DNA of 64,000 nt from an uncultured Candidatus Rokubacteria bacterium (GTDB lineage: Bacteria > Methylomirabilota > Methylomirabilia > Rokubacteriales > CSP1-6), in contig CAVYTA010000001.1 in the NCBI GenBank assembly GCA_963771355.1, forward strand, positions 64,001 to 128,000, written 5' to 3'. A program made the position numbers and the translations under genes. Positions within the stretch are counted from its first letter, which is position 1, and the number at the start of each line of letters is the position of its first letter. Below are positions 16,116 through 30,410 of this stretch, piece by piece. The notes beneath the pieces are model-generated. The model saw only the letters and a program-made list of their open reading frames with translations, had not been told where the DNA came from and made no database searches.

Positions 16116-19100
16116 GTGACCCTCGATCCTCGCGCGCTCAACTCGCTCCGCTGGCGCTCTGTCGGCCCGCACCGCGGCGGCCGCGTGGTGGCGGTGGCCG
16201 GCCATCCCACCGAGCCCTCGACCTTCTACTTCGGGGCCTGCGCCGGCGGGGTGTGGAAGACCACCGACGGCGGCACCTACTGGGAGAACGTCTCCGACGG
16301 CTTCTTCGAGACGGCCGCGGTGGGGGCCATCGCGGTGGCGCCGTCGGCGCCCAGTGTGGTCTACGCGGGCACCGGGGAGGCATGCATCCGCGGCAACGTC
16401 TCCCACGGCGACGGCGTCTACCGCTCCGACGACGGCGGCCGCACGTGGAGAAACGTGGGATTGAAGGACAGCCGGCACATCGGCCGCGTGCGCGTGCACC
16501 CGCGCGATCCCGACACCGTGTACGTGGCAGCGCTGGGGCGTGCCTGGGGGCCGAACCGCGAGCGCGGCGTGTTCCGCTCGCGCGACGGGGGCGCCACCTG
16601 GCAGCACGTCCTCGCCAAGAGCGAGCGGGCGGGGGCGGTGGATCTCTCGCTGGATCCGGCGAATCCGCGCAGCCTCTTCGCGGCGGTGTGGCAGGCCCAG
16701 CGGTTTCCTTCGCGCATGTCGAGCGGCGGCCCCGAGTCCGGCCTCTGGCAGTCCACCGACGGCGGCGACACGTGGACCGATATCAGCCGGAACCCGGGGC
16801 TGCCGCGCGGCGTGCTCGGGCGCATCGGCGTGGCTGTCTCGCCCGCCGACGGCCGGCGCGTCTACGCGGTGGTGGAAGCCGAGGACGGCGCGCTGTTCCG
16901 ATCGGACGACGCCGGGGCCACCTGGCAGCGCGGCAGCGAGGAGGCGGGACTGCGCGGCCGGCCCTGGTACTACATGCACGTGGTGGCCGATCCCACCGAC
17001 GTGGACACCGTCTGGATCATGGACTACTCGCTGTGGAAGTCCATCGACGGCGGCAAGACCTTCGTCGAGTGGGCGACGCCGCACGGCGACAACCACGACC
17101 TCTGGATCGATCCCACCGACGCGCGCCGGATGATCGAGGGCAATGACGGCGGCGCCTGCGTCTCCTTCAACGGCGGACTGTCCTGGTCGACCATCTACAA
17201 TCAGCCCACCGCGCAGTTCTACCACGTGTGCGCGGACGATCAGCAGCCGTACCGGATCTACGGCTCCCAGCAGGACAACTGGGCGATCAGCCTGCCCAGC
17301 CAGTCCCATCGCGGCGCCATCACCCCCATCGACTGGGTGCAGCCGGGCGGCGGGGAGAGCGGCTACATCGCGGTGAAGCCCGGGGATCCCAGCATCGTGG
17401 TGGGGGGCGCGGTGGGCAGCGGGCCCGGCATGGGCCGGCTCATCCACTACGACCATCGCACCGGGCAGGAGCGCATCATCAGCGTGTGGCCCGAGGGCTA
17501 TGGCATGGGCACGCCGCCCTCCGAGCACCGCTACCGGTTCCAGTGGACGTTCCCGGTGTTCTACTCGCGCTGGGAGCCGCGCGAGCTGTGGATCGCGGGC
17601 AACCGCATCTTCCGCTCCGTGGACGACGGACAGCACTGGGAGATCGCCAGTGACGATCTCACCCGCAACGACGTGACGAAGATGGGGCCGTCGGGCGGGC
17701 CCATCACCAACGACAATACCGGCGCCGAGGTCTACGGCACCATCTTCGCGCTGGTGGAGTCGCCGCACGAGCGCGACGTGCTGTGGGCGGGCACCGACGA
17801 CGGGCTGGTCCACCTCTCCCGCGATCGCGGGCGGAGCTGGCAGCCGGTGACGCCGCCGGAGCTGCCCGAGTGGGCGCTGATCAGCGTGCTGGAGCCCTCG
17901 CCGCACGACGCGGCTACCTGCTACCTGGCGGCCACGCGCTACAAGCACGACGACACGCGCCCCTATCTCTTCCGGACCACGAACTACGGGGGCACCTGGA
18001 CCCGGATCAGCGACGGCCTGCCGGCGGGCGAGTTCACGCGGGTGATCCGCGAGGATCCGGCCCGGCGTGGGCTCTTGTACTGCGGCACCGAGACCGGGGT
18101 GTGGGTGTCGCTCGACGACGGCGGGTCCTGGACGCGGCTGCGCGGCAATCTGCCGGTGGCGCCCATCCACGACCTCGTCGTCAAGAACGGCGACCTCGTC
18201 GCGGCCACCCACGGACGCTCCTTCTGGATCCTCGACGACCTCTCCCCCCTGCATCAGATGGCGGATGCGATCACCACCGCCGACGCCCAGCTCCTGGTGC
18301 CACGCCGGACGGTCCGGTGGCGGGCGTACAAGGGACACGGGATGAAGCCGGGACCCAACCGCGAGGTCGCTTACAACATGGCCGGGTCCCTCGGGTATGC
18401 CTATCGGCAGGTGGAATCACCATCGGGCGAGAAGGAAGCACGGCTCCTCGACGCGGGCGAGAATCCGCCCGGCGGCGTGATCGTGCATTACTGGCTGCGC
18501 GAGGCGCCGGCCGGTGAGGTGGTGATCACCTTCCTCGACGGCGACGGGCGCGAGATCCGCTCGTTCACGAGCCGGAAGGACAAGGTGACGCCGGAGAGCC
18601 CGGGGGCGGCGGCCGGCGGCGGGGAAGAGCCGCAGCCCGCGCTGGACCCGCCGGCGCCGGAAAAGGGCGACGAGCCGCATCCGACCCGGAGCGCGGGCGC
18701 CAATCGCTTCGTCTGGAACCTGCGGGGACCCGACGCGACCAAGCTCCCCGATAACAAGGGCCGGGGCGGCACCATGGACATGCTGGCGGGACCACGCGTC
18801 CCGCCGGGGACCTATCAGGTGCGGCTGTCCGTCAGCGGCCGCACGATCATGCAGCGCTTCGAGCTCGTGAAGGATCCGCGGGTGCCCGCCTCGGACGCGG
18901 ATCTCCGCGAGCAGTACACGTTGGCGAAGAAGGCCCATGACCTCCTCTCGCGCGTGCACGACGAGGTGCTGCGGATTCGCGACGTCCGCGCCCAGGCGGA
19001 AGGTTGGGCGGGGCGCGTGGACAACCCCGCCATCAAGGGGGCCGCCGCGACGCTCGCGCGCACGCTGACCACCATCGAGGAGGCGCTGATCCAGGTGCGC

Positions 19101-19349
19101 TCCGAGGACCCGCGCATGCATCCCGCCAAGCTCAATACCCGGATCGGCACCATGGTCACGCTCATCGAGTACTCCGACGCCGCCCCTACCCAGGCCCTCC
19201 GCGAGCTGACCGACGATCTTGCCCGCCGGGCCGAGGCGGAGCTGGCCCGGCTGGACCGGACTCTCGCGGACGACGTCGCCCGGTTCAACGCGCTCTGCCG
19301 GGACCATGGCGTCGCCGCCATCGTCCCGAAGCCGCGCGAGGGGGGCTGA
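16116..19349 (+). CDS. VPS10/BNR-repeat glycosyl-hydrolase-like beta-propeller protein
   Basis: Repeated Asp-box S/TxDGGxTW, N-terminal WRSVGPHRGGRV, ATHGRSFWILDD. No signal peptide visible. Confidence 0.88.
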   Translation: MTLDPRALNSLRWRSVGPHRGGRVVAVAGHPTEPSTFYFGACAGGVWKTTDGGTYWENVSDGFFETAAVGAIAVAPSAPSVVYAGTGEACIRGNVSHGDGVYRSDDGGRTWRNVGLKDSRHIGRVRVHPRDPDTVYVAALGRAWGPNRERGVFRSRDGGATWQHVLAKSERAGAVDLSLDPANPRSLFAAVWQAQRFPSRMSSGGPESGLWQSTDGGDTWTDISRNPGLPRGVLGRIGVAVSPADGRRVYAVVEAEDGALFRSDDAGATWQRGSEEAGLRGRPWYYMHVVADPTDVDTVWIMDYSLWKSIDGGKTFVEWATPHGDNHDLWIDPTDARRMIEGNDGGACVSFNGGLSWSTIYNQPTAQFYHVCADDQQPYRIYGSQQDNWAISLPSQSHRGAITPIDWVQPGGGESGYIAVKPGDPSIVVGGAVGSGPGMGRLIHYDHRTGQERIISVWPEGYGMGTPPSEHRYRFQWTFPVFYSRWEPRELWIAGNRIFRSVDDGQHWEIASDDLTRNDVTKMGPSGGPITNDNTGAEVYGTIFALVESPHERDVLWAGTDDGLVHLSRDRGRSWQPVTPPELPEWALISVLEPSPHDAATCYLAATRYKHDDTRPYLFRTTNYGGTWTRISDGLPAGEFTRVIREDPARRGLLYCGTETGVWVSLDDGGSWTRLRGNLPVAPIHDLVVKNGDLVAATHGRSFWILDDLSPLHQMADAITTADAQLLVPRRTVRWRAYKGHGMKPGPNREVAYNMAGSLGYAYRQVESPSGEKEARLLDAGENPPGGVIVHYWLREAPAGEVVITFLDGDGREIRSFTSRKDKVTPESPGAAAGGGEEPQPALDPPAPEKGDEPHPTRSAGANRFVWNLRGPDATKLPDNKGRGGTMDMLAGPRVPPGTYQVRLSVSGRTIMQRFELVKDPRVPASDADLREQYTLAKKAHDLLSRVHDEVLRIRDVRAQAEGWAGRVDNPAIKGAAATLARTLTTIEEALIQVRSEDPRMHPAKLNTRIGTMVTLIEYSDAAPTQALRELTDDLARRAEAELARLDRTLADDVARFNALCRDHGVAAIVPKPREGG

Positions 19350-19354
19350 AGCCG

Positions 19355-20353
19355 ATGGCGAAGCGCAACGCTCCCGTCGCCGGCCCGGAGGACGAGATCC
19401 GCATCGAGAACCGCGCTACCTACTGGCCGGTGGCGCCGGTGGACCTCCTGGTGGCGGCGCCGCTGGTGGCCAAGCTGCTCTTCCGTGCGTCGCCAATCGG
19501 GCGGATCGTGCAGGCGGTGACCCTCGGCGCCTACCTGGGGAGCGTCGCTCGTGACTGGCGCGACCGGCGCAAGGTTCTCCGTATCGCCTTCCTCCGGGAG
19601 TTCGGCGCCGACCTGCGCCACCTCGTGCCCATGCCGCGAGAGGTTCGTGAGCGCGAAGTGGCGGTGCTGGCGGCCCGCCTCAACGAGGAGCTGGTCCTCG
19701 AGCGCATCCCGAGGCGCGAGGCGGCGGTCGCCATCGAGCGGCATCTGACGGACTACATCGCCGGCATCACCGGGCAGCGTGTGCGGACCAGCGCGGAAGT
19801 CCGCGGCTTCGCCCTGGTGGGCCTCGCGCTGCCGTTCGCGCTGGGCGCCTGCGATGTCCTGTCCGGCGACGTGGCCATCTTCCGGGACACCGGCCTCTTC
19901 GAGCCGCACATCATCGCGCACGAGTTCAGCCACCGGAGGGGCTACTGGAACGAGCTGGACGCGCAGGTGCTCGCCTATCAAGCGCTGGTCGCGTCCGGCG
20001 AGCCCGCCTTCGCCCAGTCCGCGCTCTTCGAGCGGTTCTATCGCAACCTGCGCGTGCTCGCGGGCGGGGACGAGGCGGAATTCCAGCGCCTCGTGGCCGG
20101 GACCGTGCTCCGGCCCGAGCTCCGCGACGCGATCGGCTCGTTACGGCCGCCGTCCGGCCGGATCGCGGGACGGGTCGATGCCGGGATGCGGCGGGTCTAC
20201 GACGCGCGCATGCGGGTGATGGGCCAGAACGGCATCTCCGACTACGACGCGGGCTTCACGAACTTCCTCTACACGTTCGAGACGAGCGCCACCGCCCGGC
20301 AAGTGCCGCCGCCGGCGGGCGCGCTCCATCGCCGCCCGCCCGCGGCGCCCTGA
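19355..20353 (+). CDS. DUF3810-like putative zinc metalloprotein
   Basis: HIIAHEFSHRRGYWNELDAQ (HExxH plus a downstream E). Confidence 0.6.
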   Translation: MAKRNAPVAGPEDEIRIENRATYWPVAPVDLLVAAPLVAKLLFRASPIGRIVQAVTLGAYLGSVARDWRDRRKVLRIAFLREFGADLRHLVPMPREVREREVAVLAARLNEELVLERIPRREAAVAIERHLTDYIAGITGQRVRTSAEVRGFALVGLALPFALGACDVLSGDVAIFRDTGLFEPHIIAHEFSHRRGYWNELDAQVLAYQALVASGEPAFAQSALFERFYRNLRVLAGGDEAEFQRLVAGTVLRPELRDAIGSLRPPSGRIAGRVDAGMRRVYDARMRVMGQNGISDYDAGFTNFLYTFETSATARQVPPPAGALHRRPPAAP

Positions 20354-21180: not shown

Positions 21181-21785
21181 AGCTTGGGGATCTTCAGGGT
21201 CTTGCTGATCATCAGGCTACCGGAGAGAAAGAACAGCAGGACGGGGAGGTGCAGCTCCGCGCCGAGCACGCGGACCGGGTAAAGCGCGCCCAGGTAGAAG
21301 GCGAGCATCACGAGCCCGAGGGGCACGATGCTCGTGGGGATGGGTGTCCCCTCGAAGTGGTGGACCTTTCCCGTCTCGGTGGCGAGCTCGTCGGCGGTGA
21401 TGTTGAAGCGGGCCAGGCGGCTCAGCCCGCAACCCACGAAGTACATGAGGATGAGCTGATCGAGCCGGCTGTTGAGGCCCGCGGCGAAGGCGATGCCGGC
21501 CGGGGCCACGCCGAAGGAGATCACGTCGGCGAGCGAGTCCATCTCCCGCCCCATCGGGGACGCCGCGTGCCGCCAGCGCGCGATGCGTCCGTCCAGGACA
21601 TCGAAGACGAAGGCCAGGGGAATCAGGAGGGCCGCCACGTAGAGCTGGCGCCGGTCCCCGGTGGCGAGGAATCCCATGGCCTCGAACAGGGCGGCGACGC
21701 CGCAGAAGCCGTTGGCGATGGTGAAAAGATCCGCCAGGTGAAAATTGCGGATCATGGAGAAGTGCGTGCGCGGCGGGGACGCCAT
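21177..21785 (-). CDS. pssA: CDP-diacylglycerol--serine O-phosphatidyltransferase
   Basis: CDP-alcohol phosphotransferase motif DVLDGRIAR..GREMDSLADVISFG, plus RLARFN and FEGTPIP. Confidence 0.9.
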   Translation of the reverse strand: MASPPRTHFSMIRNFHLADLFTIANGFCGVAALFEAMGFLATGDRRQLYVAALLIPLAFVFDVLDGRIARWRHAASPMGREMDSLADVISFGVAPAGIAFAAGLNSRLDQLILMYFVGCGLSRLARFNITADELATETGKVHHFEGTPIPTSIVPLGLVMLAFYLGALYPVRVLGAELHLPVLLFFLSGSLMISKTLKIPKL

Positions 21786-21896
21786 GCCGACCATCCTGCC
21801 CGGAGGCCGTGTCATGGTCAAGCTTGCCCGGAAGCGCGAGGGCGTCCCGCCCAGAACCGGGACGCCCTCGTTATCGATAGAGCTCGAGACGCTCGC

Positions 21897-23693
21897 TCAG
21901 ACGGGTCCGTACTGCCGTCGCAACGATTCGAGCAGCGCCTGAACGGGCCACGCCTGGCCCACGCCCACGAGCGAGGTCTGTACGTACAGCGGATCGACCA
22001 TGGTGCTGCCGATGCCGGCGCCGAGCGGGACGCTCGAAACCGCCGGTGCGAACTCCCGCCGCTCCGGACCCGGCTGCAGAACCCGTTCGAGCCCGTGGAG
22101 TCGAGGCAAGCCCGCGCCGCTGCGGCCGGGGCCGAAGGGGTAGGGGACGCACATCGATCGGATCGTGTTGAAGAGCGCGGCGACGCGCTCCTGGGTCCGG
22201 GCGCGCAGCGGCCCGAGGAAGGCGGGATGATGGGCGAGCAAGAGGGCGGCGAGACCGGTCACGTGGGGCGCCGCCATCGAGGTGCCCGACTGCGACTCGA
22301 AGCCGCCGGGGACGGTGGACACGATAGCCACGCCCGGAGCGCACACCGCCACCTCCGGGCCGATACAGCTGAAGCTCGGCGAGAAAATGCCATCCGGGGC
22401 GATCAGGCTGGGCCGCACCGTGGTGGCCTCCCACGTCTCGTCCGGATACTCGTTGAGGCGCCCGACCGCGCCGACCCCGAGCGTATAGGGCGATGACGCC
22501 GGATAGAGCACCGGGCCGCCGGAATTGCCTCCCGCCACGACGCAGGCGATCCCATGGAGCGCGGCCTCCTCGAGCTTCTGCTCGATCGCGAGCGAGCGCT
22601 GCACGCTACCTAGGCTCAGGTTGACGACGTCGATCTCGAGATCGAGGCAATAGTTCAGGGCCTCGAGGAGGCTGCTGAACCGGCCGCCCGGGAATACCTT
22701 CACCACATGGATCTCCGCCTCCGGCACGAAGCCGCGAAGCGCCTTGCCCGATTCGTCATGGGCGGCGATGATACCGGCGCAGTGCGAGCCGTGACCGACG
22801 ACGTCGTGCGTCCAGGTTTGAGCGTCGGCGCCGTTCATCAGGTCCACGCCGTGCCGGATGTGGCGAAGCAGCGAGTGGGTGGTGTCCACCCCGGAATCCA
22901 CGATAGCGATCCGCACCCCCTTACCCGTGAGTGTCTCCGGGAGTCGGTCGAGGCCCATCTGGCGCTGTCCCCACCCATACCGGAAGTTCCCCGGGAACCC
23001 GACCAGGGTCTCCTCGATGGCGCGGAGCCGGACCACGTTGACCTCGCCGTCCAGCAGCTCCGGCTCGGTGAGGTAGACATCCCAGTAGTTGCTCGGCGCG
23101 CTCGCAAACAGGGAGCGCGGGCGCTGCCCCGGCAGCGTGAGCAGGGGCAGGGTGATCTCGCCCCGCTTGTCCGTTCGTCCCTCCTGGGGGAAGCCCTCAC
23201 CGGCGAGGCTCACGCCGACATGGGCGAGCGGCTTCTCGGCGTCGCCGATCACCCGGAAGCGGATCTGGCGGGTCTCGACGCTGCCGGCATGGTTCCAGGA
23301 GGCGAGCCGCGTCGGCGCGGGGCGTGAGAGTCCGGCCGGCGTCCCGTATTCGAGCGCAGCGTCCTCCTCGAGGAGGAGCGGCGGGGGAAGCATCTGGCTG
23401 ACCAGCTCCGCACGGTCGTGATCGATTCGCACCACGTACACCTCGGTCGCCTCGTCGGGGACCAGCGAGTAGGCGGAGACCGCCCGTCGCGGGCGTAGCA
23501 CGCGCACGATGTCCAGACCCGGAAGCTGTCCGATCACGGCGCGCACGGCGCCGGCCGGCATGGGCCGTAGGCCTGCGTTGAGTGCCTGGCTTCCACGCCG
23601 CGGGGCGAGGATGAACTGCCGCTTGCCTTGCTGCAGGATTCGCGTCGCCGGCGGCGGCGTCACGCTCGGGGGCCTGATGCCTTCATCGGCCAT
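21897..23693 (-). CDS. S8 (subtilisin-like) serine peptidase with a long N-terminal region and no signal peptide
   Basis: Catalytic triad IAIVDSG / GHGSHCAG / SGTSMAAPHV and oxyanion AGGN. RBS ggagg before ATG 23693. Confidence 0.93.
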   Translation of the reverse strand: MADEGIRPPSVTPPPATRILQQGKRQFILAPRRGSQALNAGLRPMPAGAVRAVIGQLPGLDIVRVLRPRRAVSAYSLVPDEATEVYVVRIDHDRAELVSQMLPPPLLLEEDAALEYGTPAGLSRPAPTRLASWNHAGSVETRQIRFRVIGDAEKPLAHVGVSLAGEGFPQEGRTDKRGEITLPLLTLPGQRPRSLFASAPSNYWDVYLTEPELLDGEVNVVRLRAIEETLVGFPGNFRYGWGQRQMGLDRLPETLTGKGVRIAIVDSGVDTTHSLLRHIRHGVDLMNGADAQTWTHDVVGHGSHCAGIIAAHDESGKALRGFVPEAEIHVVKVFPGGRFSSLLEALNYCLDLEIDVVNLSLGSVQRSLAIEQKLEEAALHGIACVVAGGNSGGPVLYPASSPYTLGVGAVGRLNEYPDETWEATTVRPSLIAPDGIFSPSFSCIGPEVAVCAPGVAIVSTVPGGFESQSGTSMAAPHVTGLAALLLAHHPAFLGPLRARTQERVAALFNTIRSMCVPYPFGPGRSGAGLPRLHGLERVLQPGPERREFAPAVSSVPLGAGIGSTMVDPLYVQTSLVGVGQAWPVQALLESLRRQYGPV

Positions 23694-23730
23694 TGGGGGA
23701 TCCTCCATGGTAGACGGTGTTTCCGTTCCC

Positions 23731-23764
23731 GATGGGGCGGACGGTCCCGGCCGTCCGCCCCATC
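23731..23764. repeat. Perfect 14-bp inverted repeat (intercistronic hairpin)
   Basis: gatggggcggacgg-tcccgg-ccgtccgccccatc between the Q-rich gene and the peptidase. Confidence 0.85.
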
Positions 23765-23816
23765 CCGCTGTCGAGCCGGTCTACGTCACGAAACGCTGCA
23801 TCAGCAGGACGCTGCA

Positions 23817-24267
23817 TCAGCCGGCGTAGGTCAGGATGCCGCGACCCGCCGCGCCGGAATACTGGGGCTGTCCCGCCCAGCCCCCGGTGGCCTGCCAGGG
23901 CGACGGCCAGAGCTGCGACTGGCCATACTGCGGCTGGCCGAACGGCGACTGCCCGAACGGCGCACTGCCCGAACGGCTGCATCTGCCCGAACTGTGGCGG
24001 CCCGAACTGGCCCGGCACATGGCCAAAGAGACTCTGCGGGGTCAAGCCGGCCAGGGGCGACCCGGCAATCTGCTGTGTGAGGCCGGCGAGCTGCGCTTGC
24101 TGAAGGCTCTGTGCCACCAGGTTCACGATCGAGCTCTGCGGGACGAGGCCGATGATCGGCACGAAGCCCGCCATCGGCGGCTGGCCGAACTGCTGGTACG
24201 GCCCGGGCTGGTGTCCGAGCGCTCCTAGGGGTGCGAACGCGTGCTGGGTGGAGGTGTCGAACATCAT
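23817..24267 (-). CDS. Gln/Pro/Gly-rich low-complexity protein with (S/Q)PFGQ repeats, apparent 1-nt insertion near 23963
   Basis: RBS aaaggag before ATG 24267. ORFs 23683-24267 and 23817-24026 join if one base is removed from the 15-bp repeat (cagtgcgccg to cagtcgccg), giving ~149 aa ending GILTYAG. Confidence 0.75.
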
Positions 24268-24320
24268 TCGGACTCCTTTCTGGTGTCTGGGATGAGGTAC
24301 CGGCCGACGTGGAGAGGCAT

Positions 24321-24336
24321 CGCAATCCGCTTGCCA
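24321..24336 (-). promoter_or_regulatory. sigma-54 (-24/-12) promoter
   Basis: TGGCAAGCGGATTGCG (GG-N10-GC), about 55 nt upstream of the Q-rich gene. Confidence 0.75.
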
Positions 24337-24528
24337 GCTTCGGCAGACGACGGCAAGACGCTACCGACAAATGCATTTCTCGATCTGGTCGATGGGGGCG
24401 CGGATTGCCGTGCGCGGAAGCGGGCGCCAGAGCGCCACACGTGCGGCATCCCGAGCTCGAGAGGAGGAGCGGAAGTTCGGGAGCTTAGCGGCGGTGTGGC
24501 GGTTCCGCCCGCGGTGAGCGCCCGCGTC

Positions 24529-25533
24529 TCACTGGCGCTCGCCCGGAGAGATCCCGTGCCGCTTGGTCAGCCGATAGAGCGTGCGGCGGTGGATACCGAG
24601 GAGCTGGGCGGCGAGCTTCTTGTTCCACCCCGCTTCTTTCAGCGCCCGCCGCAAATGGCCTTTGACCACCTCTTGAAGGCTCAAGGGCGGTGCGGCGGCG
24701 GCTCCCGCCCCTTCGACGGCATCGACGAGCTTGCGCGGCAGGTCCTCAGGGGAGAGGAGGGAACTCGCGCTCAGGGCGGCGGCCTGCTCGACGGCGTGCT
24801 GGAGCTCACGGACGTTTCCAGGCCAGTCGTAGGCGACGAGCCGGGCCATGGCCTCGGGGGTGATGCGGCACGCCGGCCGGGCGTTCACGTCGGCGTAGGC
24901 TTCCAGGAAATGACGCGCGAGGAGGGGGATGTCCTCACGGCGCTCCCGCAGCGGAGGCAGGGAGATCGTCACGACGCTCAGCCGGTAAAAGAGATCCTCC
25001 CGGAACTTGCCGTCCGCGACGAGCGCGCCCAGATCCTTGTTCGTGGCGGCGATGACCCGGACGTCGACCTTGAAGCGATCGGTTCCGCCTACCCGCCGCA
25101 CCTCGCGCTCCTGGAGCACGCGCAGGAGGCGCGCCTGCACGCCGGGGCTGACCTCGCCGATCTCATCGAGGAAGCACGTCCCTCCCCCCGCCACCTCGAA
25201 GAGTCCCCGCTTGTCCGCGACGGCGCCGGTGAAGGCCCCCTTTGTATGGCCGAAGAGCTCGGTCTCCAGCAGGCTTTCCGCGAGCGCGCTGCAGTCGACG
25301 GGGACGAACGGCTGGTCGCTCCGGCGGCTCGCGGTATGGACGGCCCGCGCGATCAGCTCCTTGCCGGTGCCGGTCTCTCCCTGGATGAGGACGGTGCTCG
25401 TCGTCGGGGCCACGCGCGCGACCATCCGGTACACCTCGAGCATCGGCTCCGCGATGCCCACGATACCGTGGATCTCGCCGCTCGGATCGGTCGCCGCCGG
25501 GGCGGTCTCCGTGAACCGGGACTGGGCCATCAC
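24529..25533 (-). CDS. sigma-54 enhancer-binding protein (AAA+ and Fis-type HTH) without an N-terminal regulatory domain
   Basis: GETGTGKE, ELFGHTKGAFTGA, FLDEIGE, WPGNVREL and a C-terminal HTH. Only ~22 residues precede the AAA+ domain. Confidence 0.93.
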   Translation of the reverse strand: MMAQSRFTETAPAATDPSGEIHGIVGIAEPMLEVYRMVARVAPTTSTVLIQGETGTGKELIARAVHTASRRSDQPFVPVDCSALAESLLETELFGHTKGAFTGAVADKRGLFEVAGGGTCFLDEIGEVSPGVQARLLRVLQEREVRRVGGTDRFKVDVRVIAATNKDLGALVADGKFREDLFYRLSVVTISLPPLRERREDIPLLARHFLEAYADVNARPACRITPEAMARLVAYDWPGNVRELQHAVEQAAALSASSLLSPEDLPRKLVDAVEGAGAAAAPPLSLQEVVKGHLRRALKEAGWNKKLAAQLLGIHRRTLYRLTKRHGISPGERQ

Positions 25534-25674
25534 TTCCTCCTTCGACGCGGTCGAGGGTCGGTCATTCGGGGATGTCGGTGGACGCGTGCGTTCGGAGGTG
25601 ACGACGGATCAGTGCGGACTATCGTGGCGCGGAGTTAGAGTCATTTCGGTGACGTTCGGACTCTCGACGAATTC

Positions 25675-25704
25675 ACGCTAGCCCCGGCATCGGGGGGCTG
25701 TCAA
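25675..25704 (-). promoter_or_regulatory. Possible sigma-70 promoter for the activator gene
   Basis: Minus strand TTGACA-N18-TAGCGT. Confidence 0.45.
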
Positions 25705-25787
25705 GCAAATCCGGGAAATGTGACTCTTCGGTTGCGATCAGAGCCGGCGAGAGGCGACCGCGGCGAGATCCATCGGCGTCCCGGATC

Positions 25788-26705
25788 CTAGACGGGCCCG
25801 GATGCCGTCCGCCCGGCCACTTGCGGGGTGGTGGGCCCGTCGCCCATCAGCGTCGTGCGCCGCATGTCCCGCGGCTCGTGGGCCGGGAATGGACGCGCGC
25901 GGTGCATGGTCTGGCGGTTGTCCCAGATGACGAGGTCGTGCACCCGCCATGCGTGCGCGTAGACGAACTGGCGCTGGGTGGCGTGCTCGACCAGATCGCG
26001 CAGGAAGGCACGCGCCTCCGGCACCGGCCAGTCGAGGATGCCGCCGGCGTGCGAGGAGAGATACAGCGACTTCCGGCCCGTGACCGGGTGCGTACGCACC
26101 AGCACCTGGCGGACGGGAGCGAAGCGCTCGCGCTCCTCGTCGGTGAAGTCGGTGAAGCCAAGGATCGAGCGCGAGAAGATCTGGGAGTGCTCGCAGATCA
26201 GGCCCTCGACCTCTGCCTTGGTCTCGGCGTCCAGCGCGTCGTAGGCCGCCCGCATATCGGCGAACTCCGTGTTGCCGCCACGGGACGGAACGCTGCGAGC
26301 GTGGAGCAGGGAGTACTTCGCCGGGGTGGGCTTGAACGAGCTGTCGGAGTGCCAGAGGCGATTGCCCAGGCCGAACAGCCGCGGCCGGTCGTCCCGCTTG
26401 AACACCTGGTTGTCCTTGTTCAGGTTCGACACGTCCGCAAAGGTGGTGGGCAGGCGCGCGTCATTGTCCGCGCGGAGGCCGGTGCCGATGGCGTGCTCGA
26501 TGTCGCCCAGGCCGCGCGTGAAGGCGAGCTGCTGGTCGTTGTCGAGCTTCTGGTCGTGGAAGACCAGCACCGCGTACTGATCCATGCCGGCGTGGACGGC
26601 GGCGTTCTCCTCGGGCGAGAGGGGACGCCGGAGGTCGAGGCCCTCGACCTCGCCGGCGAAGCAGGGCCCGACCTGACGGATGCGGATCGACGTGGCCACG
26701 GTCAT
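25788..26705 (-). CDS. TauD/TfdA family 2-oxoglutarate-dependent dioxygenase
   Basis: NRLWHSDSSF (HxD), GGNTEFADMRAAYD, WDNRQTMHR. Confidence 0.93.
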   Translation of the reverse strand: MTVATSIRIRQVGPCFAGEVEGLDLRRPLSPEENAAVHAGMDQYAVLVFHDQKLDNDQQLAFTRGLGDIEHAIGTGLRADNDARLPTTFADVSNLNKDNQVFKRDDRPRLFGLGNRLWHSDSSFKPTPAKYSLLHARSVPSRGGNTEFADMRAAYDALDAETKAEVEGLICEHSQIFSRSILGFTDFTDEERERFAPVRQVLVRTHPVTGRKSLYLSSHAGGILDWPVPEARAFLRDLVEHATQRQFVYAHAWRVHDLVIWDNRQTMHRARPFPAHEPRDMRRTTLMGDGPTTPQVAGRTASGPV

Positions 26706-29348: not shown

Positions 29349-30410
29349 CAGGCGTTCCTGTAGGCGGCCAGCACCGCCTGCGCCATCGCGCGGGTGGTGG
29401 CGGTGCCGCCCTGGTCGGGAGTGAGGGTCTTGCCGTCGCGGTAGACGCGGCCCACCGCGGCCTCGAGGCGCTGGGCATCGGCGCCCAGGCCCATGTGCTC
29501 GAGCATGAGCGCGGCGGAGAGAATGGTCGCGGTGGGATTGGCGATGCCGCGTCCCGCGATGTCGGGAGCGGAGCCATGGACCGACTCGAAATACGCCCAG
29601 CCGTCGTCGCCGAAGTTGCCCGAGGGCGCCAGCCCGAGCCCGCCGGCGGTCTCCGCGCCCAGGTCCGAGAGGATGTCGCCGTAGAGGTTCATGCAGAGGA
29701 CCACGTCCATGGACTTCGGGAAAGCGCACCAGGCGCCGCGCGGCGTCGTCCACGTGGAAGTGCTCGAACTCGATCCCGCTCGCCGCGCGCACCACGCGCT
29801 CGGCGATCTCCTGGAAGAGCCCGTCGGTCTGGCGCATCACGTTCGACTTGGTGACGCAGGTCACCTTGCCGGGCTTGCCCCGCGCCTTGCGCTTCTTGGC
29901 GAGATCGGCGGCGAAGCGGGCGATGCGCTCGGCGCCGCGCGGCGTGACCACCTTCACCGCGAAGCGGCCCTCGGTGCCGTACTCCTTCAGGGTCCGCCCG
30001 GTGCGGTCGCTGAGGTCGGGCATGAGCCGGACGAGATCGGCCAGCTGGCCCTCGCGCCCCGGATAGATCCCTTCGCTGTTCTCGCGGAGGAGCACATAGT
30101 CGATGCCCTCGGGATCGGCCAGCGGCGAGCGCATCCCCGGGTAGAACCGGATCGGCCGGATGCCGGCCCACGCGCTCATCTCCCAGCGAAGCCAGGACAC
30201 CACCTGCGAGGTGGCCGGACCGGCGGCGCCGAAGAGTACGCCATCCGCCTCGCGCGCGGCCCGCTTGGTTTCCTCCGGCAGCGGCGCGCCCTGTGGCGGC
30301 GTGAGAATCTTGAGCGGCAGGCCCGTGCCCATCAGGAGCTCGCAGGTGGCGTCCACCACCTCGATCCCGATGCCCTCGCCGGGCAGCGCGACGATCGTCT
30401 TCATGGCCAT
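29348..30410 (-). CDS. Isocitrate/isopropylmalate/tartrate dehydrogenase family, frameshift near 29715
   Basis: [20 protein letters not shown], then in a second frame NLYGDILSD and [13 protein letters not shown]. Confidence 0.88.

Follow-up and report, generated by a model that had tools for sequence, protein, structure and literature searches.

A gene for an almost uncharged, Gln/Gly/Pro/Phe-rich protein, broken by one surplus base in the window analysed here (a stretch of 64,000 nucleotides from an uncultured Candidatus Rokubacteria bacterium, assembly G000), forms a module with an adjacent pro-subtilisin of the S8 family. The frameshift itself is ordinary, the surplus base being most likely an assembly error; the S8–partner module, by contrast, is unnamed, and its partner proteins are without a Pfam or NCBIfam family. 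In Rokubacteria, the module comprises, in this order, a headless sigma54 activator, a sigma54 promoter, the uncharged Q/G/P-rich gene and a pro-subtilisin without a signal peptide (Table 1). We consider it somewhat likelier to be right than wrong that the 149-residue partner is transcribed from the sigma54 promoter together with the subtilase and is cut inside the cell after hydrophobic-x-Pro-Gln, yielding uncharged amphipathic pieces that self-assemble or coat a surface. The preliminary description of this locus had missed the peptidase, its apparent control by sigma54 and the existence of a wider family.

Table 1. Features of the S8–partner module in the window (strand: -, minus;., not stranded)
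Feature	Position	Strand	Remarks
Pro-subtilisin (S8)	21897..23708	-	PF00082, 131 bits; real start probably ATG 23693
Uncharged Q/G/P/F-rich partner gene	23817..24267	-	149 aa without the surplus base
15-bp (five-residue) repeat coding for the FG/PFGQ stretch	23900..24016	-	Variable between relatives
Surplus base	23963..23963	.	Absent in 7/7 covering runs; most likely an assembly error
LTPQ/S, putative cleavage site 2 (LTPQ|S)	24031..24045	-	Only in some orthologues
LVPQ/S, putative cleavage site 1 (LVPQ|S)	24133..24147	-	Followed by the one predicted helix
Shine-Dalgarno-like AGGAG	24273..24277	-	Before an ATG ATG start; read from sequence
Sigma54 -24/-12 promoter motif TGGCA-N6-TTGC	24322..24336	-	In the window, G006 and G007; predicted function
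Headless sigma54 activator	24529..25533	-	AAA+ with GAFTGA, Fis-type HTH, no receiver domain

On the minus strand, the Q/G/P-rich frame extends from 24267 to about 23965, where the reading shifts to the next frame until the stop codon at 23817. With an unknown codon placed at the shift, its product contains 26 Gln, seven FG dipeptides, one Asp, one Arg and no Lys or Glu, reproducing the composition counted previously. The two true parts of the gene have a third-position GC of 0.87 and 0.90, similar to the 0.86 and 0.88 of neighbouring genes, but the value is only 0.67 in the tail of the 194-aa read-through frame, which was rejected on this ground and because its only record is a one-contig singleton. 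That record also means that the mistranslation anticipated from automated annotation has already entered the databases, and we flag the deposited sequence as wrong. The base at 23963 is missing from all three covering DNA runs and all four RNA runs (seven studies; the DNA run X5 had no coverage), in a comparison that drew on 8 of 24 listed runs, all of them assembled contigs and not the window's own raw reads. These contigs bear out the predicted frameshift near 23963, as does the comparison with homologues: natural relatives (P0133, P0134 and L031) carry an intact frame, not the read-through, and end in G[IV]LTYAG, in agreement with the expected GILTYAG C-terminus. A single intact partner ORF is also present in the same setting in two genomes of the genus. 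Among 105 genes of G000 orthologous to 400 kb of G006, nine (~9%) have a changed frame, and in the reverse comparison 13 of 111 genes of G006 do, so that both assemblies appear error-prone. The absence of the base from seven runs, the intact frame of relatives and the share of broken genes together make an assembly error the most likely explanation. Programmed frameshifting and RNA editing are out, since the base is absent from DNA and RNA contigs of relatives alike. It is highly unlikely that the sampled clone truly carries the extra base as a private mutation, leaving a pseudogene or a gene for the 194-aa form, a possibility that concerns the base only; the evidence does come from other runs rather than from the source reads (the best of which has 0.73 of the sampled words in common), but none of the seven covering runs has the base, the nine broken orthologues and a dehydrogenase gene of the same window are damaged in like manner, and the 194-aa form is a singleton.

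This dehydrogenase gene (isocitrate/isopropylmalate type, window ~29350–30400, minus strand) is split by a frameshift near 29700, the Pfam profile matching at 2–231 in one frame and at 234–348 in another, and its first frame reads on into a PEP-mutase gene to give a false fusion ORF. A probable second surplus base lies at 23788 in the spacer between partner and S8, where X1, X10 and X18 leave out one base at 23788–23789 and X9 and X20 have other indels. The partner genes of loci L032 and L042 also look frameshifted, and low-complexity genes of this kind may often be mis-annotated. ORFs on the plus strand across the partner region, such as a Cys-rich 130-aa frame, were dismissed as antisense shadows.

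In an alignment of 14 window-type relatives (A3), L-V-P-Q is invariant, and the conserved parts of the partner are VP(I)xxLVPQ(S), the helix after this motif, SPW and a C-terminal GRG. The sequence SLFG that continues the second site, LTPQ|S, resembles the core starts of relatives (see below). The suggestion that GL(V/T)PQS marks protease sites is backed by the adjacent subtilase and by enrichment of the motif throughout the family. Tandem Repeats Finder confirms the 15-bp repeat as arrays of 15–16 bp at 23900–24016. The FG stretch that it encodes is the least conserved part of the protein, varying in copy number and being much reduced in orthologues. FG nucleoporins and prion-like domains are low in charge, rich in G/Q/S/P with aromatics, and disordered. 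The window-type partner shares this composition, with low charge, 11% aromatics and predicted disorder, and is in this sense a low-charge disordered chain with aromatic stickers, but no homology to these domains was found. Moreover, unlike them, it has only seven FG dipeptides in a variable stretch, a conserved helix, protease-type motifs and a fixed link to a peptidase. Its repeats are neither conserved in number nor evenly spaced, 94% of shuffled sequences being as even in their aromatics or more so. Since the FG stretch is a variable insert, the nucleoporin or prion analogy drawn earlier is secondary and does not hold as an identity. The model of P0134, an intact relative, is of low confidence (pLDDT 50) and mostly disordered, with a single helix at 45–71. 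No Pfam or NCBIfam family matched P0134, the ESM Atlas returned only unnamed clusters under 0.9 for this protein and one repeat-type partner, and the window-type profile retrieved only seven proteins among 1.84 billion representatives. A composition scan of G000 for paralogues gave five matches, namely, the two halves of the partner gene and an unrelated rest.

The S8 ORF starts 108 bases after the partner stop, and its second Met is nearly invariant among relatives, hence the start preferred in Table 1. The enzyme consists of a propeptide (~28–121), an inserted beta domain (~145–240), a catalytic domain and a low-complexity tail. It has the subtilase fold with an intact triad (D271/H306/S477) and oxyanion residue (N395). 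The best structural match of its model (pTM 0.76) is unprocessed pro-subtilisin E (Z 38, 339 residues, model range 28–542). Pro-subtilisin E and pro-Tk-subtilisin superimpose on residues 28–546 of the model with Z of 37–38, compared to 34 for mature subtilisins, with both propeptide and catalytic domain aligned. The N-terminal propeptide fold of subtilisin (I9) is thus recognizable by structural alignment of the model, and the Pfam I9 profile gives no score on the window sequence. In contrast to these two proenzymes, the window S8 lacks a signal peptide and has a ~100-residue inserted beta domain, a 23-residue loop and a low-complexity tail, and a second, free propeptide copy occurs in many loci of its relatives. 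The loop (421–443) is conserved, replaces subtilisin residue 186 and presumably lies beside the S2′ region. Signal peptides were detected by a hydropathy heuristic in none of 121 S8s and none of 55 partners, and no twin-arginine motif was found in the S8s. The triad and oxyanion Asn are intact in 97 of 121 aligned S8 sequences, and Gln occupies S1-pocket position 166 in 91 of the 121, the window enzyme having Leu. Tails of S8s are rich in A/P/G/Q. The catalytic His or Ser has been lost in 13 of 88 close relatives and in none of 33 distant ones. Enzymes lacking either residue keep a long ORF (e.g. L004/L030 of G034, P0064, P0069 and P0088), and their sequences suggest that they are pseudoproteases, so that some lineages may keep the pair without proteolysis. 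Within the phylum, the S8 is patchy, being found with the window query in 4 of 251 genomes, G000 included.

The activator matches PF00158 from residue 25 and HTH_8, and combines an AAA+ domain bearing GAFTGA with an HTH and no N-terminal sensor, as in the headless class, which we take to be of group IV type. In those upstream activator copies that were called whole, Walker A falls within the first 44–69 residues. A headless activator lies directly upstream in loci of the Rokubacterial clade, and the activator cluster is found in 16 loci. The sigma54 motif is present in 12 of 14 activator loci, compared to 1 of 47 others and 7 of 3000 random windows, and rpoN is present in G000. The ends of two RNA contigs, at 24296 and 24301, fall slightly inside the predicted promoter, a weak hint at most. 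The interval 21700–25800 yielded no sigma70 promoter and no intrinsic terminator, of which ~1 would be expected there by chance. Two plus-strand genes located upstream do not belong to the module, one for a large protein with BNR/Vps10 repeats (16116–19349) and one for a DUF3810-like protein (19004–20353).

At least 1581 relatives of the S8 were found at E 1e-30 or better, the named ones belonging to Polyangia, Paraburkholderia, Trinickia, Massilia, Gammaproteobacteria and Streptomyces. We compared 85 loci, near-duplicates included, drawn from the best 80 of 420 metagenome matches, three genome records and two plasmids. Where at least 900 nt of upstream sequence is present, 63 of 64 loci have an uncharged Q/G/P-rich ORF that ends no more than 1.5 kb before the S8 gene, and 7 of the 21 shorter loci have one as well; the single exception among the 64, L042, has an apparently frameshifted uncharged partner. 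The same filter is passed by 2 of 500 random places in G000 and by 2 of 43 downstream regions, the latter being low-charge Gly/Pro/Gln-rich ORFs downstream of the S8 in L082 and L084. The trait common to all partner types is composition, namely, being uncharged and rich in Q/G/P, and none of four partners scanned matched a Pfam or NCBIfam family. When 669 neighbouring genes of the 85 loci were clustered, the recurring ones were regulators (the sigma54 activator in 16 loci, a LuxR-type response regulator in 19) and small propeptide-like ORFs, the other scanned clusters being lineage housekeeping. No conserved modifying enzyme beside the precursor emerged from these clusters, many loci being short, and no conserved exporter, immunity or modifying gene was found in the flanks of the 32 loci with 5 kb upstream and the 39 with 3 kb downstream. 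A gene resembling an ABC ATPase lies within 5 kb in one of the 85 loci, of which 32 have 5 kb upstream.

In a quick, unrooted S8 tree of 64 rows, computed without bootstrap or outgroup and leaving out 22 of the 85 loci (no partner, short matches or stops), the Rokubacterial enzymes form a clade of 17 rows (support 100) inside a 35-row group (support 99), the remaining 18 rows of which are loci with repeat-type partners. A separate clade of 14 rows (support 100; L069, L071–L074, L077, L093, L099 and L102–L108) has a partner with one Gln-rich helix motif of the LGQLAQQ type and usually a convergent gene for a LuxR-type response regulator. Partners without cores occur in L094, L095, L100, L111 and L112, with Gln/Ala repeats or PFGGQ/PYGGQ-type repeats, and include very Gln-rich proteins of Streptomyces plasmids. 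In L060, L065 and L067, a LuxR-only HTH gene precedes the S8, and unknown ORFs come after it together with a bestrophin-like gene and a gene for a GH19 hydrolase; the S8 of L065 clusters with Paraburkholderia and Trinickia proteins.

Of 55 non-redundant partners, 42 contain the motif hydrophobic-x-PQ[GS], with 124 occurrences in all compared to a mean of 12.7 and a maximum of 23 in shuffled sequences; 24 of 30 partners of the Rokubacterial clade keep it. An LPF-type motif occurs 86 times in 26 partners (shuffle mean 9.3). Among partners found only by their S8 neighbourhood, and with 15–60 residues allowed between the two motifs, the intervening segments are exactly 44 aa long in 53 of 89 cases and 44–46 aa in 64; 19 of the 55 partners have two or more such cores. 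A core profile matches 192 proteins by the core alone, for example in Methylocystis, Massilia, Duganella, Steroidobacter, Sneathiella and Microlunatus. In its best 120 matches, 506 of 542 cores are 44–46 aa long, a figure biased by the 44-residue query and the pattern, and the spacers measure 5–144 aa and are 33% Gln. The consensus at the junctions of these matches is Q[LF]APQ|G[WF]F on one side of the core and [ML]LPF|[SG]A[DG]P on the other. The cores contain 30% Gly with invariant glycines, are mostly neutral or +1, and have an amphipathic helix at their start (mean moment 0.33 versus 0.19 in shuffled sequences). The glycine-zipper family PF13488 scores on 11 of 30 cores (best E 0.02), the scores of the first core lying below the cut-off, and does not match the window-type partner. 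Glycine-zipper bacteriocins, microcins and PSM-beta peptides are likewise small, Gly-rich, amphipathic and helical, and similar in length to the cores. The core profile found nothing better than E 1.3 in the PDB, and a resemblance to PSM-beta peptides was discarded for want of PDB or Pfam support.

The profile of the window-type partner does not match that of the 44-residue core (2%), nor is P0134 matched by the latter. The two types are linked weakly, only via intermediate Rokubacterial partners that keep recognizable core starts and ends (E 1e-9 to 6e-3, values that low complexity can inflate). The terminal TYAG of the window protein aligns with the terminal MAYAG of the family, implying loss of the LPF-type site in the window lineage. 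From these alignments, the Rokubacterial partner looks like a degenerate descendant of repeat-type partners: its PQ sites and a single helix survive, the clean core is gone along with the LPF site, and FG-rich repeats occupy the middle.

The 23 best-scoring small ORFs between partner and S8 all belong to non-Rokubacterial loci, almost all of the repeat type. When 13 of them were aligned, the resulting profile matched the propeptide of the S8 (96%, E 1e-9), and 14 of 22 that could be anchored end within two residues of the conserved Y121 of the S8, suggesting autoprocessing at Y|G. Judged by this similarity, the stand-alone ORFs may encode a free inhibitor of the enzyme. Their best PDB match had E 0.47, and no Pfam family matched them consistently.

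According to the reading that we favour, the sigma54 promoter would drive the partner and the subtilase together, the enzyme would cut its partner in the cytoplasm after hydrophobic-x-Pro-Gln, and the released pieces would assemble among themselves or on a surface. In canonical relatives, the partner is a string of 44–46-residue glycine-zipper cores set between Q[LF]APQ|G and [ML]LPF|[SG] and separated by variable Gln-rich spacers, and the product of the stand-alone propeptide-like gene would restrain the enzyme. Such specificity has precedents among S8 enzymes. Those of Rothia cleave XPQ and LPY sites similar to the ones found here, although they are extracellular and digest a foreign substrate, gluten (PMC8053163). 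The epilancin leader peptidase ElxP, a cytoplasmic S8, reads (L/V)-x-x-Q, with a hydrophobic residue at -4 and Gln at -1 as in the partners (PMC10885120), but no lanthipeptide enzymes are found in the conserved flanks here. Processing of a neighbouring substrate is a common theme in bacterial S8 clades, exemplified by the S8-associated polymorphic toxin system (S8-PTS), in which S8s with signal peptides flank BetaH toxin-immunity pairs and basic cleavage sites are used (PMC9424270, section 3.4). The present S8 is likewise tied to a neighbouring substrate gene, but signal peptides, BetaH pairs and basic sites are not seen. Cyanobactin precursors, too, have multiple cores, recognition motifs on the N- and C-terminal sides and adjacent S8 enzymes (PMC10885120), a layout shared by the repeat-type relatives. 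By contrast, there is here a single S8 with a subtilisin-type propeptide instead of PatA/PatG (TIGR03895, 29 bits versus a cut-off of 421), the 44-residue cores look unmodified, no heterocyclase or tailoring gene is conserved, and the window protein has no clean core. The junctions also differ from the cyanobactin recognition sequences G(L/V)E(A/P)S and AYDG (PMC10885120). Several points speak against cleavage: the motifs might cap a repeat domain that stays uncut, position 166 of the window enzyme is Leu, its partner has lost the LPF site, and several partner types (Gln-helix, Streptomyces) are core-less. A more sweeping version, which we regard as doubtful, is that of a widespread undescribed system for making peptides: a single cytoplasmic subtilase would release glycine-zipper hairpins of a fixed length of 44 residues from a polyprotein with Gln-rich spacers, cutting both ends and possibly joining them head-to-tail by means of its extra loop. 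The free propeptide copy would act as a timer, the products would form an intracellular or surface assembly without exporter or tailoring, and the Rokubacterial form would be derived, with the cores replaced by an FG-rich chain that forms condensates and is freed by the same cleavage.

Alternatively, though this is unlikely, the partner might be an insoluble, prolamin-like amino-acid reserve kept in an intracellular body, which the propeptide-held subtilase digests on need. The Q/P-rich, uncharged composition resembles that of a prolamin and is the only trait common to all partner types; S8s and partners lack signal-peptide-like N-termini, an ABC ATPase-like gene is near the S8 in a single locus, the Rothia enzymes cut XPQ in gluten (PMC8053163), and the gene is present in all four soil or rhizosphere RNA assemblies compared, these runs having been found with this stretch. 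However, nitrogen is not enriched in the partner (17.2% versus 17.8% for the S8), and cores of fixed 44-residue length with invariant glycines imply a defined structure, which a bulk store would not need. The partner could also stay whole as a condensate, gel or fibre, its motifs being structural caps and the S8 binding, chaperoning or turning it over. Low charge, the aromatic content, a mostly disordered model with one helix, similarly A/P/G/Q-rich S8 tails and the persistence of catalytically dead S8s among close relatives are consistent with this idea. It is rendered improbable by the FG stretch being the least conserved part, by the uneven spacing of the aromatics, and by conserved flanks that match known subtilase sites next to enzymes whose triad and oxyanion Asn are mostly intact. 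Finally, release of the cores as exported, membrane-active bacteriocin-like peptides of the glycine-zipper type, possibly closed head-to-tail by the S8, would fit their Gly content and charge, the amphipathic helix start, the sub-threshold glycine-zipper scores and the conserved extra loop, but is quite improbable given the lack of a conserved exporter, immunity or modifying gene in the flanks, of a double-glycine leader or C39 transporter, of a PatA/PatG-type score and of a core in the window protein.

The module, of two to three genes, recurs in many soil bacteria, with carriers among Rokubacteria, Polyangia, Burkholderiales, methanotrophs, Gammaproteobacteria and Actinomycetes. No description of it was found in the literature at the level of titles and abstract starts; subscription papers and supplements may bear on its novelty. 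The products of BN69_1924–1928 are not listed in five supplementary files of the Methylocystis sp. SC2 proteome (PMC9600857), an uninformative result. Since partners contain few Lys and Arg, tryptic proteomics would likely miss them. If cleavage by the subtilase is correct, the module would offer a very simple way of producing peptides that self-assemble or are bioactive, and its subtilases would constitute a subfamily reading Pro-Gln, the bond type behind the poor digestibility of gluten. Cultured carriers, including Methylocystis sp. SC2 (BN69_1926), Massilia, Duganella, Paraburkholderia and Streptomyces, make the question directly testable.
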